From Methanocellales archaeon (lineage in GTDB: Archaea > Halobacteriota > UBA148 > JAUWXC01): 64,000 nt of DNA. The position numbers and the translations under genes are program-made. Below, piece after piece: positions 4,184 to 50,456 of the stretch. The DNA is taken from contig JASEEY010000001.1 of assembly GCA_030018435.1 (NCBI GenBank), positions 83,641-147,640 of the forward strand. Direction: 5' to 3'. Under the pieces are notes generated by a model. The model was not told the origin of the DNA. It saw nothing but the letters and a program-made list of their open reading frames with translations, and searched no databases. Within the stretch, counting starts at the first letter, position 1. Each line of letters starts with the position of its first letter.

Positions 4184-5254
4184 TCAAGACTCTTTTTGCC
4201 CCTTCATATAGACCGTTCGTATCGGGAATGGTATCACGATGCCCTCTTTATTGTACCTCTTGTGCAACTCCTTCATGAACTCATGAGTCACCAGATACTT
4301 GTCCACGTATTCCCTTACCCTTAGAATGACGGTGAAGTTTATGCTGAAGTCGCCGAATTTGTTGTACCTTATGAACGGCTCAAACGTCTCCACACCCCCG
4401 CTCACTTTCTTCAAGACTTTCTTTGCCACATCAATCGTAACTTTCTCCACCTTCTCGAGATCGCTATCGTAACTCACACCCACATCTACAAGGCAAGACA
4501 TCTCCTTCTCCGGCAGATAATAATTCGTGACTATGGCTTGAGTAAGTCTTTTATTCGGTATGACGATGACGTTGTTTGGCAGACTTCTTATCCTGGAGGT
4601 CCTCCATCCAACGTCGACCACGTAGCCTTCCTCGCCGCTATCCAGTTTTATGTAGTCGCCAACCCTGACAGGACGGTCGGTCATGATGTAGAAGCCGGAA
4701 AAAAAGTTTGATAATGTCTCTTGCAGTGCCAGCGCGACCGCAACGCCTCCGATGCCCAGCGTTGTTAATAATGGTGTAATCGAAACACCTAAAACATCGA
4801 ATATGATCATCAAACCGATGAGATATATTACTACTTGCACAACCCTCTGAATGATGGGAGCAACGGGTTTCGTACCCTCGTGCTTCTTGGCATAGTGCTT
4901 GATGAATCCCATCAGAATCCTGGAAACGCAAAATACCGCCGCTAATACGATGAATACAAGCAGCAGGGGGTCAACGTAAACCTCAATTTCAGGGGGCAAC
5001 GCCATGTAATGAAGTACGGTCCCAACACCTATGACTACGAAAATAAATATTAAAGGCATCCTAACCGTCCTGACGATTATGTCATCCAATTTCGTCCTCG
5101 TCTTCTCAGCCAGTCTAGCGATATAGCGGTCGATTATGAGGACTAGTACATAGCCAAAAACGACGAACGATATTATAATCAGTAGGGGCACCATGTACGA
5201 TGCCAAAAGTGATGATATGGCTTCTTCCAAAACTCCTGCCATTTTATCGACCAT
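4184..5254 (-). CDS. mscS: Small-conductance mechanosensitive channel, MscS family
   Basis: N-terminal TM helices followed by the MscS beta-domain signature (…PVRVGDYIKLDSGEEGYVVDVGWRTSRIRSL...). Confidence 0.85.
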   Translation of the reverse strand: MVDKMAGVLEEAISSLLASYMVPLLIIISFVVFGYVLVLIIDRYIARLAEKTRTKLDDIIVRTVRMPLIFIFVVIGVGTVLHYMALPPEIEVYVDPLLLVFIVLAAVFCVSRILMGFIKHYAKKHEGTKPVAPIIQRVVQVVIYLIGLMIIFDVLGVSITPLLTTLGIGGVAVALALQETLSNFFSGFYIMTDRPVRVGDYIKLDSGEEGYVVDVGWRTSRIRSLPNNVIVIPNKRLTQAIVTNYYLPEKEMSCLVDVGVSYDSDLEKVEKVTIDVAKKVLKKVSGGVETFEPFIRYNKFGDFSINFTVILRVREYVDKYLVTHEFMKELHKRYNKEGIVIPFPIRTVYMKGQKES

Positions 5255-5352
5255 CTTTAATAATGTAGAGGTATTCTATGATATATCTTTCTTAATTTGA
5301 GAGCGCTATTAGAAAAAGCATATAAAACAAAACATCCAGATGGTTATTTACC

Positions 5353-6822
5353 ATGTATTCTCCAGAGAGCATTCAAAAATTGGTAAAATCCAAGCTGAGG
5401 GGGTACAAATTTTTCATCGTTTCTAACAGGGAGCCGTACATTCATATGCACACCCCCGAGGGCATAAAGTGCAAGACTCCCACTGGCGGTCTGACCGCAG
5501 CATTAGATCCGCTGATGCAGGCATGTAAGGGCACATGGATTGCAGGGGGTAGCGGAGATGCAGATCGGGAAAACGTCGATGAGCATGACAAAACGCTAGT
5601 TCCGCCCGATGATCCAAAGTATGTACTGAGAAGAGTATGGATGAGCAAAGACGAGGTGGATAAGTATTACTTTGGCTTCTCCAACCAAGTGCTCTGGCCC
5701 CTGTGTCACAATGTTTTCCATAAGCCGACCTTTGACAAATCGTTCTGGGATGGCTACAAACATTCAAACAAGTTGTTTGCGAGAGCGGTCCTGGATGAGG
5801 TAAAAGGGGAGAAGGCGTTTGTGTGGTTTCATGATTATCATCTCGCCTTAACGCCTCGAATGGTTAGAAGTAAGGCAAAAGGACAAATCGTATCTGCACA
5901 TTTCTGGCACATTCCCTGGCCTTCATGGGATGTGTTCATGACCTGCCCATGGGCAAAAGAAATATTAGAAGGGTTATTGGCAAATGACCTGATTGGATTT
6001 CATCTCAAAAGGTACTGTATAAACTTCATGGCAAGTGTCGAGAGGGCTCTTGGGGCATCAGTGGACTACAAGTCCTTTGCGATTCAATATGGCGGCAGGA
6101 CAATTCTCGTAAGACCTTTTCCAATTAGTATAGACTTTGATGCCATAGAAAAGTCCGCGAAAAAGCCCATCATAAAGAGGAAAATCAAGGAAATCAGATC
6201 TCCGCACTATATTCCATATGAATTCATCGGCGTTGGCGTTGACAGACTTGATTATACAAAGGGCATCATAGAGAGATTTCATGCCATAGACAGGTTTCTG
6301 GAGAAATATCCAAAATACCAGAACAACTTCGTGTACATCGAGGCCGGTGCACCGAGCAGGAGAAAAGTACCCGCATACATGAAACTGGGCGAGGATATAA
6401 CAAAGCTCGTCGAGGGTATCAACTGGAAGTATCAAAGGGGTTACTGGAAACCCATTATATACATAGAAGGAAAACTGGAATACAACAAACTTTTAGCACT
6501 GTATAGAACGGCAGATGTGTGTATAGTGAGTCCTCTCCAGGATGGAATGAATTTAGTGGCAAAGGAGTTTGTCGCCGCCAACGTTGATCGCAACGGTGTT
6601 TTAATCCTCAGTCAGTTTGCAGGAGCTACGGAGGAGCTAAAAGATGCGGTCGTCGTTAATCCGTATGATGTCGAGGGTTTCGCAGATGCGATAAAAAATG
6701 CTTTAGAAATGAGGGGCGAGGAAAAGCGAAAAAGGATGGAGAGATTGAGGGGGGTTGTGAGGGAGAATAACGTGTACAAGTGGCTGGGAGATTTTGTCTC
6801 CGAAGCCGCTAAACTCATTTAG
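5353..6822 (+). CDS. otsA: Alpha,alpha-trehalose-phosphate synthase (GT20)
   Basis: GT20 motifs GFSNQVLWPLCH, WFHDYHL and GFHL; 489 aa. Confidence 0.9.
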   Translation: MYSPESIQKLVKSKLRGYKFFIVSNREPYIHMHTPEGIKCKTPTGGLTAALDPLMQACKGTWIAGGSGDADRENVDEHDKTLVPPDDPKYVLRRVWMSKDEVDKYYFGFSNQVLWPLCHNVFHKPTFDKSFWDGYKHSNKLFARAVLDEVKGEKAFVWFHDYHLALTPRMVRSKAKGQIVSAHFWHIPWPSWDVFMTCPWAKEILEGLLANDLIGFHLKRYCINFMASVERALGASVDYKSFAIQYGGRTILVRPFPISIDFDAIEKSAKKPIIKRKIKEIRSPHYIPYEFIGVGVDRLDYTKGIIERFHAIDRFLEKYPKYQNNFVYIEAGAPSRRKVPAYMKLGEDITKLVEGINWKYQRGYWKPIIYIEGKLEYNKLLALYRTADVCIVSPLQDGMNLVAKEFVAANVDRNGVLILSQFAGATEELKDAVVVNPYDVEGFADAIKNALEMRGEEKRKRMERLRGVVRENNVYKWLGDFVSEAAKLI

Positions 6823-6829
6823 TGATCCT

Positions 6830-7627
6830 ATGGAATACCTATTTGATTGCTGGGCTTCGATCGAGTATACGCTCGGTCGTTGGAAAAGAGTGGGAGTGTT
6901 ACCGAAAATTTTGCTGTTAATGGATTATGATGGCACGCTGACGCCCATCGTTGACAGGCCCGAACTGGCGGTTTTATCAGATGATGTAAGGGATGTGCTA
7001 AAGCAGACATCAAAGCGCTATCCAACAGCCATCATAAGCGGAAGATCGCTGAAGGATATCAAAAATATGGTAAAGGTGAAAGAGATATACTATGCCGGAA
7101 ACCATGGCTTTGAGATCTCCGGACCCGAAATAGAGCTCATAAAAGATGAGGCAAAGTTAGCAAAACCAGTAATACTAAAAATATGCAACGAACTGCAAGA
7201 AAAATTATCCCATATGAACGGTGCTATCGTCGAGAACAAGGGGCTAACCGCAAGCGTTCATTACAGACTGGTTTCAAAAAATGATTTTCCGGAGTTGAAA
7301 AAGGTATTCGAGGAGTTGACAAAACCATACCTCGAGAGAGGAGACATCAAGATTACCAGTGGCAAAAAGGTGTTTGAGATCAGGCCAAACGTCGACTGGG
7401 ATAAGGGGCGAGCGGTGTTGTGGATAATGAATGCCCTCAACATTAAAGATGGCCTGGCAATCTATATGGGCGATGACAAAACAGATGAGGATGCATTTCT
7501 TGCCCTGAAAAATAAGGGGATAACCATTTTGATTTCAGAGAGGACAAAAAAATCGAATGCAAAATACTTTTTGAGAGATGTATCTGACGTCAAGGCGTTT
7601 CTGGGAAGGTTGATTTCGTTATCCTAA
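6830..7627 (+). CDS. otsB: Trehalose-6-phosphate phosphatase (HAD family)
   Basis: HAD motif LLMDYDGTL and T6PP-like C-terminal motifs (GDDKTDEDAF). An alternative upstream start at 6794 would overlap otsA. Confidence 0.85.
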   Translation: MEYLFDCWASIEYTLGRWKRVGVLPKILLLMDYDGTLTPIVDRPELAVLSDDVRDVLKQTSKRYPTAIISGRSLKDIKNMVKVKEIYYAGNHGFEISGPEIELIKDEAKLAKPVILKICNELQEKLSHMNGAIVENKGLTASVHYRLVSKNDFPELKKVFEELTKPYLERGDIKITSGKKVFEIRPNVDWDKGRAVLWIMNALNIKDGLAIYMGDDKTDEDAFLALKNKGITILISERTKKSNAKYFLRDVSDVKAFLGRLISLS

Positions 7628-8985
7628 TACTTCTGAAAATATATCCCATATTGGTTTTGTGCCCTCCGCATATTCTTTCGTTACCGTATCGAAGCCCATT
7701 TCTCCGATTGCCACCCCCTTCTCAGGATGTGAGAGCACACCAATGGCCTTCTCGGCAAGCTCTTCTGGATTTTTTGGGTCAAAAACATAGCCGTTCTCTC
7801 CTTCCACGATTAACTCTGAAACACCTGCGCCAGAGCTAATGACGGCGGGTTTCTTGTACAGCCAGGCTTCGATCACGACCAGCCCAAAGCCTTCTTGAAT
7901 CGATGGCAACACCACTACATCAGACCGCGCATATGCAGCCCTAAGCTCTTTATCGGGCAGATAACCCGTGAATATCACGTTTTCCTCTATACCGAGCCCT
8001 TTGACCAATTCTTCGAGCTTGCTCTGCCATATGGCCCCCTTATGATATCCGAGGCCCCCTCTTTTAGCACTTGTAAAGCTCCCATCACCGATCAGAAGCA
8101 GTTTCGTTTTCGGAAAACGCTTGAGAATGGCAGGCAAGGCCTTTATCGCAACATCCTGAGCCTTCATCGGCACGATTCTAGCTACGACGGATATGACGTT
8201 CTCATCTCCTATCCCGAACTCATCGCAGAATTTGTGGACCTCTGATTCTGATGGCGTGGTGAAGGCGCTCTGGTCGGTGTAGGGATATACCTGGTATGCT
8301 CTGCCTTTATAACCTGCTTTTTGGAGACTATCAAGATACTTCTTGCAACTGACGATTAGTGCATCATGATTTTGCATATGTCTGAGCACGAACTTGCGCA
8401 GATCGTCTGAGAACGATTCCACGTTCAAGGGGATGTGCCATCTGAATATCTTAGGAAATGGGGCAAGCATCGATCCCACGAGCAATTGCTGAAAGTCGTG
8501 TATATAAAACAAATCAAAGTCAATTCAAAGTCAATTTCACTATTCAGTTCCAGCATTTCCCATGCGCACAGCCAGTTGTAGAGAGAGAAATAACGGAAAT
8601 GGTCCATTTGCATCTGCTTTGGCTCGAGGTTATGCACAGCACGCCACAGTGACTCCTTGAACCTGGCAAAGCCGGAGAGCATGTGCGGATTTATCATAAC
8701 GTGATGCAGGGTTATTCCATCTGCCGTAATTGATCTCGGAGCCATCGGATTCAACACAACCCAATGGGGGTCTTTGATGATGCCCGCGGCAATGGAGTCC
8801 CTCAGAAACGGATAAACGATTCTCGACACGCCGCCAGGCGTATATTCATAATCCTCTCCCTCAGTGAACATGCTGAGCGGCGCGGGCTCGGAAAATTCAC
8901 CATACTTGCCGTACAAATCGTTAGAGTCCAGTTTGAATCTCACCAATGGCGTCTGGGAATTCACGCAGATTTTTAATTCGTGCAT
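7619..8985 (-). pseudogene. GT4 (group 1) glycosyltransferase, TreT/sucrose-synthase-like, split by an 11-bp tandem duplication
   Basis: Two minus-strand ORFs, 8425..8985 (N-terminal domain) and 7619..8512 (GT4 C-terminal domain, EGFGLVVIEA…), overlap. Deleting one copy of the perfect tandem repeat caaagtcaatt (8515..8536) joins them in frame as …NSEIDFDLFYIHDFQQLLVGS…. Confidence 0.75.
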
Positions 8986-26727: not shown

Positions 26728-28683
26728 ATGAAAGAGCAGATGACAAGCGTGGATGTGGCAGCCGTCGTGGCGGAATTGCAACGCCTCATCGACGCAAAGC
26801 TGAACAAGGCATATCAGCATGGAGATGAGATACGATTGAGGTTACACTCCAAGAGCGAACGCTATGACCTCGTCATAGAGGCGGGCAAGCGAATTCATCT
26901 GACAAAATACCCTCGCTCTGGTCCAAAGATCGCTTCTAGTTTCTCGATGCTGCTGAGAAAGCATCTGACGGGCGGACGAGTTGCGGCGATAGAGCAATAC
27001 GATTTTGATAGAATCGTCGAGATTCACATCCAACGCGGTGATGCAAAGAGGGTACTCGTAGCCGAATTGTTCTCAAAAGGAAACGTCGTGCTGCTGGATG
27101 AAAACAGGAAGATAATCCTGCCGCTAAAATCGATGAGTTTTCGCGATAGGAAAATCAAGCGGGGCGAGCAGTACGAGTATCCACCATCCCAGATGAATCC
27201 GATGGAGATCAATAAAGAAGAGCTGCGCACCTTATTCGATAAATCTGAAAAGGACGTCGTCAGGACGCTTGCCTCTGGACTGAATATGGGCGGAATATAT
27301 GCAGAGGAAGTATGCACCAGGACCGGTATTGAAAAGAGCGTTCCGGCGAAGAGCCTGGATCGCAAGCAGTTTGAATCGGTTTATACCACGTTGCATACGC
27401 TATTCGAGCCGATTAAATCTGGTGCACTGAAACCGCACATAGTCGTTGCGGAAGAAATGGTTGACGTGCTCCCGTTTGAGTTAAGGCCATACGAGACGTA
27501 TGAAAGAAGATATTTTGACACGTTTAACGACGCATTGGACGAATTTTTCTCGGTAAAGGAGATAAAGAAGGTAGAAGAGGAGGGGCGGGAGATCAAAGAG
27601 GTGCAACTGGACACCATAAAGCGGACGCTGAAACAGCAGGAAGAAGCACTACAACGTTTTAGACAGAAAGAGAGGGAGTGCATTCAGAAGGCCGAACGCC
27701 TTTATGCCCTGTACCAGCGCATCGACAAAGTTCTCCGCAACATTAAAGAAGCGAGAGAGAAGGACGTTTCATGGGACCAGATTGCCGCCATGAAAGGAGT
27801 CCTGAGCGTTGACCCCAGCAAAGGAGAAGTGGTGGTAGATGCTAATGGAATCCTAATCGCATTGGATGTTAATTTGAATATCTCGCAGAATGCTGAGAGG
27901 TATTATCAGCGCGCTAAGGAATATAAGAAGAAGTTGGAGGGAGCGCAAAAAGCGCTGGAGAAGAGCAAAAAGAGACTCGAAGAGGTTGAAGCCCTGAGAG
28001 TCGAGGTCGCATACGAAAAAGCGCCGCAGCGGAGGGTTAGGCAGAGAAAGCACTGGTATGACAAATTCAGATGGTTCTTTTCGTCCGATGGTCTTCTTGT
28101 GGTGGGCGGGCGAGATGCCGACACGAATGAGGAAATTGTCAAGAAATACATGACGTCTGGAGACGTATTTTTCCATGCAGACGTGCATGGTGCCCCCGTC
28201 CTAATCGTCAAAGCTGAAGGCAAAGACGTACCAGAAACTACACTTAAAGAGACAGCACAGTTCGCAATTTCATATTCAAGTATCTGGAAGGCCAGAGCTT
28301 ATGAAGGAAAATGCTACTGGGTTAGGCCGGAACAAGTTTCAAAGACCCCTCCGTCGGGGGAATATCTGCCAAAGGGGAGTTTTGTGATCAGGGGCAGGCG
28401 AAATTATATGGATGCTTTCGTAGGGATAACAATTGGTATAGAGATAAATGATGAGACCAGAGTCGTTAGCGGACCTCCCAGCGCAATCGAGAAAAGGGCA
28501 AAATATCTTGTGGAGATAGAACCGGGTGACAAAACGCAGAACGAGGTGGCAAAGGAGATGTTGAAGATGTTTCTTTTAAGGGCATCAGCAGAGGATAGGC
28601 GCTTGATCAAGCAGATCGCCTCGCCAGACAAAATTATGCCATTTCTGCCTCCAGGCAAGTCAAGGATGAAGGTGAGATCGTGA
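26728..28683 (+). CDS. NFACT-family protein (archaeal Rqc2/FbpA homolog, ribosome quality control)
   Basis: NFACT-N, a coiled-coil region and NFACT-R/C domains (…WFFSSDGLLVVGGRDADTNEEIV…). Start chosen at MKEQMTSVDV; the track ORF begins at 26659. Confidence 0.75.
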   Translation: MKEQMTSVDVAAVVAELQRLIDAKLNKAYQHGDEIRLRLHSKSERYDLVIEAGKRIHLTKYPRSGPKIASSFSMLLRKHLTGGRVAAIEQYDFDRIVEIHIQRGDAKRVLVAELFSKGNVVLLDENRKIILPLKSMSFRDRKIKRGEQYEYPPSQMNPMEINKEELRTLFDKSEKDVVRTLASGLNMGGIYAEEVCTRTGIEKSVPAKSLDRKQFESVYTTLHTLFEPIKSGALKPHIVVAEEMVDVLPFELRPYETYERRYFDTFNDALDEFFSVKEIKKVEEEGREIKEVQLDTIKRTLKQQEEALQRFRQKERECIQKAERLYALYQRIDKVLRNIKEAREKDVSWDQIAAMKGVLSVDPSKGEVVVDANGILIALDVNLNISQNAERYYQRAKEYKKKLEGAQKALEKSKKRLEEVEALRVEVAYEKAPQRRVRQRKHWYDKFRWFFSSDGLLVVGGRDADTNEEIVKKYMTSGDVFFHADVHGAPVLIVKAEGKDVPETTLKETAQFAISYSSIWKARAYEGKCYWVRPEQVSKTPPSGEYLPKGSFVIRGRRNYMDAFVGITIGIEINDETRVVSGPPSAIEKRAKYLVEIEPGDKTQNEVAKEMLKMFLLRASAEDRRLIKQIASPDKIMPFLPPGKSRMKVRS

Positions 28684-29720
28684 GGGTCGTAAAACAAAAA
28701 TTGAGGAGGCAAGAGGGCGAGATAACACTCGTTCCTGATTCGTTGGATGACCTGTGGCATCTCAAGTACATCATAGAACCTAATGATTTGGTGTTCGCGT
28801 TCACGAAGAGGCAGGCCGAGGTCCCGAAAGACAAACTTCGTCCTGAAAAGGTGGAGAAGAAGCCCGTGCGATTGGGCATAAGGGTTGAAGAGGCTACGTT
28901 TCACAGATTTTCCAACCGTTTAAGAGTGAAGGGTGTCATCGAGCACGGCATAGACATAGGAACGCATCATACGCTTAACGTAGCACCTAGCGTAGAGGTT
29001 TCAATCATCAAGCGCTGGAGAGGTGATCAGCTGCAAAGGATCAAAGAGGCCGTTCGAGCTTCTATGCACCCAAAGGTGGCAATCGTCACCATCGAGGAGG
29101 GTGAAGCCTGCATCGGTGTTGTTCGGCAATATGGCGTGGAGACGCTGGCTACTATCAGGGGAACTTCCCTAAAAAGGACAGGTGAAAAAAGCGAGTTCTT
29201 CAGCAGTATCGCTCGCCAGCTTGGGCACATGGAGGATGTGCGGTTCATCATTGCAGGCCCGGGCTTCATCAAGGAGGATTTTTTGGGATTTCTCAAGCAG
29301 CATCATTCTGAAATTGCAAAAAGAGCAGGGTTAGAGACCACCTCATCCATAGGCATGTCCGGTTTTCAGGAGGTGCTCCGCAGGGGCGCTGTGGATAGAA
29401 TAATAGAGGAGGCGCATATCGCTAAAGAGGCGAAACTGATGGAGATGTTACTTGTGGAAATTGCCAAAGATGGAAAAGCAACGTATGGCATGGATGATGT
29501 GAGAAAAGCAATGGAGTACGGTGCAATAGAGACGTTGTTAATTGCAGATGAGATGTTGAGGAGCGCAAAGGAACGTGACTATCTTGATACGTTTCTAAAG
29601 GATGTGGAGAAGGCTAGGGGCAAAATCGTGGTCTTCAGCACGGAATTTGAGCCTGGAAAAAAACTGCAATCGCTGGGAGGTATTGCAGCGCTGCTGCGCT
29701 TTTCAATCGAGTACGCGTAG
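28680..29720 (+). CDS. pelA: Pelota/Dom34 (mRNA surveillance, ribosome rescue)
   Basis: eRF1-like three-domain architecture, 346 aa, with conserved Pelota motifs (…FIIAGPGF…). Confidence 0.85.
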   Translation: MRVVKQKLRRQEGEITLVPDSLDDLWHLKYIIEPNDLVFAFTKRQAEVPKDKLRPEKVEKKPVRLGIRVEEATFHRFSNRLRVKGVIEHGIDIGTHHTLNVAPSVEVSIIKRWRGDQLQRIKEAVRASMHPKVAIVTIEEGEACIGVVRQYGVETLATIRGTSLKRTGEKSEFFSSIARQLGHMEDVRFIIAGPGFIKEDFLGFLKQHHSEIAKRAGLETTSSIGMSGFQEVLRRGAVDRIIEEAHIAKEAKLMEMLLVEIAKDGKATYGMDDVRKAMEYGAIETLLIADEMLRSAKERDYLDTFLKDVEKARGKIVVFSTEFEPGKKLQSLGGIAALLRFSIEYA

Positions 29721-29762
29721 CTTAAACTAACGTGTACGCGTAGCTTAAACTAACGTGTACGC
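29711..29762. repeat. 23-bp tandem direct repeat (2.2 copies), gtacgcgtagcttaaactaacgt, overlapping the pelA stop codon
   Basis: Two perfect copies plus a partial third. The repeat contains the TACGCGTAGCTTAAAC motif that recurs at about 57.0 kb and 59.42 kb. Confidence 0.8.
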
Positions 29763-49737: not shown

Positions 49738-50456
49738 GTTTCGAGGTGATCCCCGCTGTTGACATAAAGGGTGGCAAATGCGTGCAACTCGTTCAGGGCG
49801 TGCCCGGTACGGAGACGGTTTCCTTGGAGGATCCAGTGGGGGTGGCGATGCGCTGGGCTGAAGAGGGTGCCAAACGTCTGCACCTGGTGGATTTGGATGG
49901 CGCATTTGAAGGGACGCGAAAAAATGCACATCTGATCGAACAAATCGTGGAAACATGTCCTTTGGCGATACAGGTTGGAGGGGGCATACGCTCCTATGAG
50001 GAGGCGGTAGCCCTTCTTAATCTGGGCGTTGACAGAATCATCATGGGAACTGCAGCAGTGAGAGACGCGATGCTTGTCAAAAGATTGGTAGATGAGCATG
50101 GAAGCAAACGCATCATGACCGCTCTGGATGTAAAAGGTGGGCATGTCATGATCGAGGGTTGGAAAAGAAGTGCTGGCAAGGATCCAGTGGAGTTAGGTGT
50201 AAAACTGGAAAAATTGGGCGCTGGCTTCATACTCTTCACCAATGTGAACGTCGAGGGATTGTTGCGCGGAATAGACCCAGAGCCAATCAGGGCGCTAGTT
50301 CAGGCGGTGCACATCCCTGTGATCGCATCTGGTGGTGTCACATCCCTGGACGATTTGATTGCCATCAGAGATGCTGGTGCGGCTGGTGCGGTCGTAGGAA
50401 CGGCACTATATAAAGGCAATTTTACGCTGAGAGAAGCGATGAAGGTGGTGGGATGA
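49734..50456 (+). CDS. hisA: 1-(5-phosphoribosyl)-5-[(5-phosphoribosylamino)methylideneamino]imidazole-4-carboxamide isomerase
   Basis: IPAVDIKGGKCVQL, VGGGIRS and ASGGV motifs of the HisA/HisF fold, with length and context fitting HisA. GTG start. Confidence 0.85.
   Translation: MSFEVIPAVDIKGGKCVQLVQGVPGTETVSLEDPVGVAMRWAEEGAKRLHLVDLDGAFEGTRKNAHLIEQIVETCPLAIQVGGGIRSYEEAVALLNLGVDRIIMGTAAVRDAMLVKRLVDEHGSKRIMTALDVKGGHVMIEGWKRSAGKDPVELGVKLEKLGAGFILFTNVNVEGLLRGIDPEPIRALVQAVHIPVIASGGVTSLDDLIAIRDAGAAGAVVGTALYKGNFTLREAMKVVG

Follow-up and report, generated by a model that had tools for sequence, protein, structure and literature searches.

Saci_1249 of Sulfolobus acidocaldarius, a 444-aa protein of glycosyltransferase family 4 (GT4), is a distant TreT homologue (E 3e-15) that has TPS activity and is without TreT activity; its type was reported as narrow in distribution, found mainly in Sulfolobales, with Saci_0016, a HAD phosphatase of non-canonical type, as its partner (Stracke et al. 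2020, PMC7688234). In Thermoproteus tenax, the msc-gt-tpsp operon encodes a trehalose synthase complex in which the GT (TTX_1305) activates TPS, and by the authors' account this operon is confined to Thermoproteus and Pyrobaculum (Zaparty et al. 2013, PMC3634074). Like that operon, the window (the whole 64,000-nt stretch of Methanocellales DNA analysed here) clustered a GT4 glycosyltransferase, trehalose-6-phosphate (T6P) synthase and phosphatase genes and a mechanosensitive channel, at positions 4184-8985 (Table 1). TPS and TPP are separate genes in the window, whereas they are fused in T. tenax. The glycosyltransferases differed too: TTX_1305 is a PimA-like protein of 387 aa with the N-terminus MNVAVVAPQ (known from published primers), whereas the window GT has 451 aa and an OtsA-like N-terminus (CVNSQTP). 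Compared by length and first nine residues alone, TTX_1305 looks unlike the window family.

Table 1. Features of the trehalose cluster and of the broken GT4 gene in the window.
Feature	Position	Strand	Remarks
MscS-type mechanosensitive channel	4184..5254	-	Flanks the trehalose genes
otsA, GT20 trehalose-6-phosphate synthase, intact	5353..6822	+	PF00982 full-length, E 1e-133; 489 aa
otsB, trehalose-6-phosphate phosphatase, intact	6794..7627	+	PF02358, E 3e-51
Rest of GT4 gene, codons 151-451 plus stop, shifted frame	7619..8524	-	tblastn 8524-7622
Out-of-frame tail of the N-terminal ORF	8425..8526	-	33 aberrant codons (ELTLICFIYTTFSNCSWDRCLPHFLRYSDGTSP) plus stop
Perfect tandem duplication	8514..8536		Extra matching base at 8514 gives a 23-nt period-11 tract
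GT4-type T6P synthase gene, native codons 1-153	8527..8985	-	N-terminal part, acceptor-side Rossmann domain

As the preliminary description of this locus had noted, the GT4 gene adjoins otsA and otsB; otsB is convergent with it and overlaps its 3' end. The mechanical ORF of OtsB (TTG at 6794) shares 29 nt with the end of OtsA, and the gene calls of the Logan collection point to an OtsB start near 6890 (245 aa) and an OtsA start near 5380 (480 aa).

The GT4 gene was interrupted by a perfect 11-bp tandem duplication, the central observation of the preliminary description, with CAAAGTCAATT at window positions 8515-8525 and again at 8526-8536 with zero mismatches (AATTGACTTTG in its coding-strand form; TRF lists the repeat at 8510-8536 with period 11). 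In 100 first-order Markov simulations of the window, the chance expectation for perfect tandem duplications with a unit of at least 11 nt was 0.02 per 64 kb, so the 11-mer repeat is no chance match; two such duplications were observed, the 11-mer at 8515 and a 23-mer at 29711. The 23-mer, GTACGCGTAGCTTAAACTAACGT, was present in 2.3 perfect copies (29711-29762) that started at the last codons and stop codon of the ORF 28680-29720, left its protein unaltered and were otherwise intergenic, which suggests that tandem duplication makes up a visible share of the indel spectrum in the window's lineage. A third, shorter repeat, the perfect 9-bp tandem duplication GCTGGTGCG (2.1 copies, 50373-50391), has a unit that is a multiple of three and would be in frame if it lay inside a gene.

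Two minus-strand ORFs, 8425-8985 (186 aa) and 7619-8512 (297 aa, with a mechanical TTG start), share 88 nt of overlap across the duplication. Removing one 11-mer yielded an ORF of 1356 nt that encodes 451 aa plus stop, contains ...LELNSEIDFDLFYIHDFQQLLVGS... and is colinear with the orthologue, which bears out the earlier view of the two ORFs as frameshifted halves of a single GT4 enzyme. With 11 nt inserted after codon 153 of the 451-codon gene, translation would run through 33 wrong codons to a stop, and the downstream remainder of the gene would have no native start. In GenBank, MDI6888185.1 is the whole 186-aa ORF, annotated 'hypothetical protein QMC78_00610', and MDI6888184.1 (283 aa, 'glycosyltransferase family 4') begins at an internal ATG, calculated to lie at 8470. 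The native codons 1-153 contain 12 of the 43 family-invariant residues, and the catalytic HD motif (H159, D160), R266, K271 and E361-x7-E369 all fall in the shifted part. The 186-aa product, composed of 153 native and 33 aberrant residues, is accordingly without all of these motifs and without the entire donor-binding domain. An AlphaFold model of the colinear orthologue showed a GT-B fold with two Rossmann domains (pLDDT 90.1, pTM 0.89), which puts the break in the segment joining helix 127-151 to strand 155-159, within the N-terminal Rossmann domain. The break site immediately precedes DLFYIHDFQQL, the most conserved N-domain motif of the family in a 16-sequence alignment. From this we infer that the broken gene is a null allele.

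In a search covering 5.8 billion protein clusters, the best match to the repaired protein (P0001, 451 aa) aligned without a gap at 86% identity and 100% coverage, and full-length archaeal homologues of 448-485 aa numbered in the hundreds. The sole 100%-identical match was a 283-aa C-terminal fragment, 'MAG: glycosyltransferase family 4 protein [Methanocellales archaeon]'. At the DNA level, the P0001 locus (L002, in GCA_030626965.1), whose OtsA shares 92% amino acid identity with that of the window, aligned with a gap of 11 nt precisely where the duplication lies, and it carried a single AATTGACTTTG. In the 16-sequence alignment the repaired protein was gapless through the junction, and a single tblastn HSP spanned residues 130-180 at each of the 161 other related loci (80 species-representative genomes, 80 JGI metagenome contigs and L002), the split occurring in the window's own organism only. 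A comparison of orthologues had been proposed earlier as a check, and its outcome was clear: the nearest orthologue was intact with one 11-mer, and with every one of the 161 relatives uninterrupted and no two-ORF layout lacking the duplicated 11-mer among them, a genuine two-gene architecture was ruled out.

The repaired protein matched PF00534 (Glycos_transf_1, the GT4 C-terminal domain) at E 9e-38 over residues 256-425, and kept both glutamates of the E-x7-E motif, of which E361 is nearly invariant and E369 invariant across the family. BLASTP against Saci_1249, of which residues 19-443 were rebuilt with reading errors from a machine-read supplementary alignment figure, gave about 39% identity over 422 aa (E 1e-68). 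Against a family HMM built from 71 members, Saci_1249 reached 323 bits, whereas two TreTs reached 54-74 bits and the window OtsA 38 bits. Saci_1249 and the window protein are of similar size (444 and 451 aa), have in common the GT-B fold and the GT4 C-terminal domain, lie at a similar distance from P. horikoshii TreT (E 3e-15 vs 2.5e-14) and share the motifs GGVP, YNW, DFQ-LLVG, HIP, VAR-DP-K-QDVAI, KLLL-G-GSFTS and SSGAGVSEL.

The enzyme had earlier been labelled TreT-like, which holds in a distant sense only. TreT (P. horikoshii 2x6q; T. uzoniensis 6zj4) is likewise a GT4 enzyme of trehalose metabolism with a GT-B fold (TM 0.70-0.73), and the nearest solved structures by sequence were generic GT4 enzymes and TreT (E 2.5e-14). 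However, the repaired protein stayed below the curated cut-offs of both TreT models (PF21269, TreT_GT1, 19.3 bits against 27; NCBIfam NF041139, 60.7 bits against 775), the family motif reads HDFQQ where TreT has HDPQP, and bona fide TreT is found as a separate gene beside family members, as at the ANME-2c locus described below. These cut-offs, the motif and the family HMM comparison rule out a TreT assignment, and the closest characterised relative is Saci_1249 instead. The highest-ranking Foldseek matches were T6P synthases (E. coli OtsA 1gz5 and mycobacterial and fungal Tps1, TM about 0.75), with sucrose-phosphate synthase and TreT next. The GT4 protein gave no match to PF00982, its resemblance to 1gz5 being at fold level only (TM about 0.75, 17% identity), and a GT20 OtsA identity was rejected, the true GT20 OtsA being the adjacent gene. 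Given its homology to Saci_1249 and its genomic context, we file the gene as a GT4-type T6P synthase: it is most likely a second T6P synthase, of the Saci_1249 family, and the intact enzyme would be predicted to have T6P-synthase activity. In place of the second trehalose route such as TreT that had been suggested, the locus would probably have held a second T6P synthase feeding the same OtsB.

Unlike Saci_1249, members of the window sub-family often stand beside a canonical OtsB-type phosphatase and an MscS channel, and the window copy is broken. Of 160 loci, 53 had an OtsB-type phosphatase close to the family gene, 43 of these being without a GT20 OtsA in the flanks fetched; MscS was close to it in 39 of the 160 and DUF5752 in 29. 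The count of TreT neighbours was left out because it may contain cross-hits to the family itself. At an ANME-2c locus (L039), the family gene is flanked by a GH65 phosphorylase, another GT4, DUF5752 and a bona fide TreT. DUF5752, a domain-of-unknown-function family, recurs beside the family gene in trehalose clusters of ANME-2 and Methanocellales (for example, L039 7365-8015 and L046 3911-4561) in which GH65, TreT or OtsB is also encoded, and it may be an unrecognised part of the trehalose machinery. The window itself gave no match to DUF5752. The family is widespread, occurring in Hadarchaeota, ANME-2/Methanosarcinales, Bathyarchaeia, Nitrososphaeria and Thermoplasmatota (loci L003-L163, for example L019, L035, L045, L049, L050, L062 and L068). 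Judged from sequence, the distribution of the family is therefore broader than the 'mainly Sulfolobales' reported in 2020.

The repaired gene had a dN/dS of 0.14 against L002 (0.15 in the N part, 0.13 in the C part) at a dS of about 0.5, the values for its neighbours being 0.08 for OtsA and 0.19 for OtsB. It kept 43 of 43 family-invariant and 51 of 57 nearly invariant residues, and no second stop or frameshift was found in it. By these estimates, the gene is one that has been under purifying selection for essentially the whole of its divergence from L002. A long-standing pseudogene was ruled out by the dN/dS and the intact invariant residues. Since dN/dS is low, the invariant residues are kept, there is no second lesion and the two copies are identical, we regard the duplication as recent. 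As in a frameshift pseudogene, there is an identifiable lesion, and its removal brings back colinearity with full-length orthologues. We consider the locus to be a young pseudogene or a polymorphic loss-of-function allele that stems from a recent, genuine 11-bp duplication, with a probability of roughly 0.77. The preliminary description had offered three options, and of these a recent inactivating mutation has the best support. Replication slippage or misalignment would be the likely origin of the repeat. Short tandem duplications (>3 bp) recur as spontaneous loss-of-function mutations in S. acidocaldarius pyrE spectra, where 'large indels' make up about 10-15% (PMC7785828, PMC3139894); those duplications were laboratory-selected, whereas the one in the window comes from an environmental genome.

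Sister copies of the gene were taken from the 90% cluster of P0001. In L002 and L166 the gene was intact and adjoined otsB. In L164 (JGI 3300033388, Ga0370355_1003690) we found a perfect 14-bp tandem duplication, CGCCAGAATCGTGC twice at L164 4792-4819, which falls at codons ~266-269 and splits the gene into ORFs of 274 aa and 183 aa; taking out one 14-mer restored a 452-aa ORF. L165 (JGI 3300033144, Ga0366838_1034549) carried a 77-nt deletion near codons 48-73 (L165 near 4005). Between L164 and L165 the gene had zero mismatches, and 5.1 kb of flanking sequence showed 7 mismatches but no indel. A 56-nt indel directly after the GT4 stop codon (L164 5373 / L165 5147-5202) was the only other difference in length between these two contigs in 6.3 kb. 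Downstream of the gene, otsB and otsA were absent from both L164 and L165. Pairwise omega within the clade was 0.10-0.16 for all pairs. Three of the five clade assemblies therefore carry independent, recent frameshifting indels (the 11-bp duplication, the 14-bp duplication and the 77-nt deletion). Recurrent loss of a gene under relaxed or negative selection is the simplest reading of these lesions, although three of them could mean something more than neutral decay. A stronger version, in which recent switching-off has repeatedly targeted the GT4-type T6P synthase gene within this Methanocellales clade, is a tentative idea that we hold to be unlikely. Switching-off might then follow from selection against a redundant synthase, from selection against T6P accumulation in lineages without otsB, or from a reversible duplication polymorphism. 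T6P accumulation is toxic in other organisms. In the window lineage the gene would have been lost through redundancy with OtsA, and in the sister lineage perhaps for want of a phosphatase partner.

A reversible on/off polymorphism is improbable as an account of the lesion in the window. Under it, slippage would precisely remove the 11-mer, and ON (one-copy) and OFF (two-copy) cells would coexist, the synthase being either toggled or, time and again, selected off. A perfect repeat of two copies does lend itself to precise reversion; the L164 duplication arose independently, the near-identical L165 having its 77-nt deletion instead; and three recent lesions have accumulated in five assemblies despite strong purifying selection (omega 0.10-0.16). 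The contingency loci Neisseria lgt and Haemophilus lic resemble the window in having a direct repeat within a glycosyltransferase ORF, the copy number of which sets the frame. In those loci, however, units of 1-7 nt form long tracts whose presence is conserved and whose copy number differs from strain to strain, whereas the window has only two copies of a long unit with no repeat tract in the ON state, and the orthologue in L002 has one. Among the 161 relatives, no repeat tract or other copy number was found at the site. The sequences compared thus show neither the conserved multi-copy tract nor the copy-number variation that define a phase-variable contingency locus, which makes the slipped-strand switch considered in the preliminary description improbable. 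Each of the three lesions also has a site of its own and the 77-nt deletion is irreversible, so that general loss of function fits better than a dedicated switch. In addition, the collection of 5.8 billion protein clusters held no intact allele of the window's species, and an exact-pattern scan of JGI metagenome contigs detected none of its alleles, whether with one, two or three copies. Scanning those contigs with the protein as guide returned only relatives at ≤51% identity, all uninterrupted.

An error of sequencing or assembly, with a true genome of one copy and an intact gene, we regard as very improbable. The source is a metagenome-assembled genome, and the 23-mer at 29711-29762, as a second perfect duplication, brings the number to two per 64 kb, which could hint at systematic error. 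Yet a different pipeline gave the identical two-copy sequence: a Logan contig (SRR23186780, 15.9 kb) was 100% identical to the window over the 6852 nt fetched, both copies included, and its gene calls were the same, at 186 aa and 283 aa. Exact look-ups of both fragments led to this one Logan contig only. The NCBI MAG and the Logan contig are independent assemblies, perhaps of one run, and so perhaps not independent samples. Because the Logan assembly reproduces the duplication, an assembler artefact is unlikely. The 22-nt structure is also shorter than the k-mers typical of de Bruijn assemblers, which means that the junction k-mers must exist in the reads. An 11-nt tandem duplication is, moreover, atypical of short-read or homopolymer errors, and comparable lesions occur in the separately assembled JGI samples.

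Residual activity, in which the two polypeptides act as a split enzyme or in which -1 frameshifting or an 11-nt hop yields a full-length product, is hardly credible: the ORFs do overlap by 88 nt, the identical copies would supply equivalent codons for take-off and landing and leaky low-efficiency recoding is known in bacteria, but the two-gene layout occurs in no related locus, the break interrupts the beta-sheet of a single Rossmann domain and gives the N fragment 33 foreign residues, and the lesion is too young to have evolved recoding signals. By eye, no X XXY YYZ slippery heptamer was found in the short stretch where a -1 shift keeps D154, and programmed -1 frameshifting was rejected as a designed mechanism for want of such a heptamer.

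With a recent inactivating duplication as the preferred reading, MDI6888185.1 and MDI6888184.1 are fragments of one broken gene, and in metabolic reconstructions OtsA and OtsB alone should be credited with trehalose synthesis. The organism probably still makes trehalose via these two enzymes. What it lost is most likely a redundant T6P synthase, and we infer redundancy with OtsA to be the reason why the loss is tolerated. The 11-bp duplication taken alone is an ordinary young loss-of-function mutation; three lesions in one clade hint at changing selection on trehalose-phosphate synthesis. Beyond this organism, the comparison places a large archaeal family beside the only characterised GT4-type T6P synthase, a type thought to be largely confined to Sulfolobales, and links that family habitually to canonical OtsB, MscS channels and DUF5752, often without a GT20 OtsA. 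Hundreds of entries named 'glycosyltransferase family 4' from Hadarchaeota, ANME-2, Bathyarchaeia and others thereby gain an annotation that can be tested.
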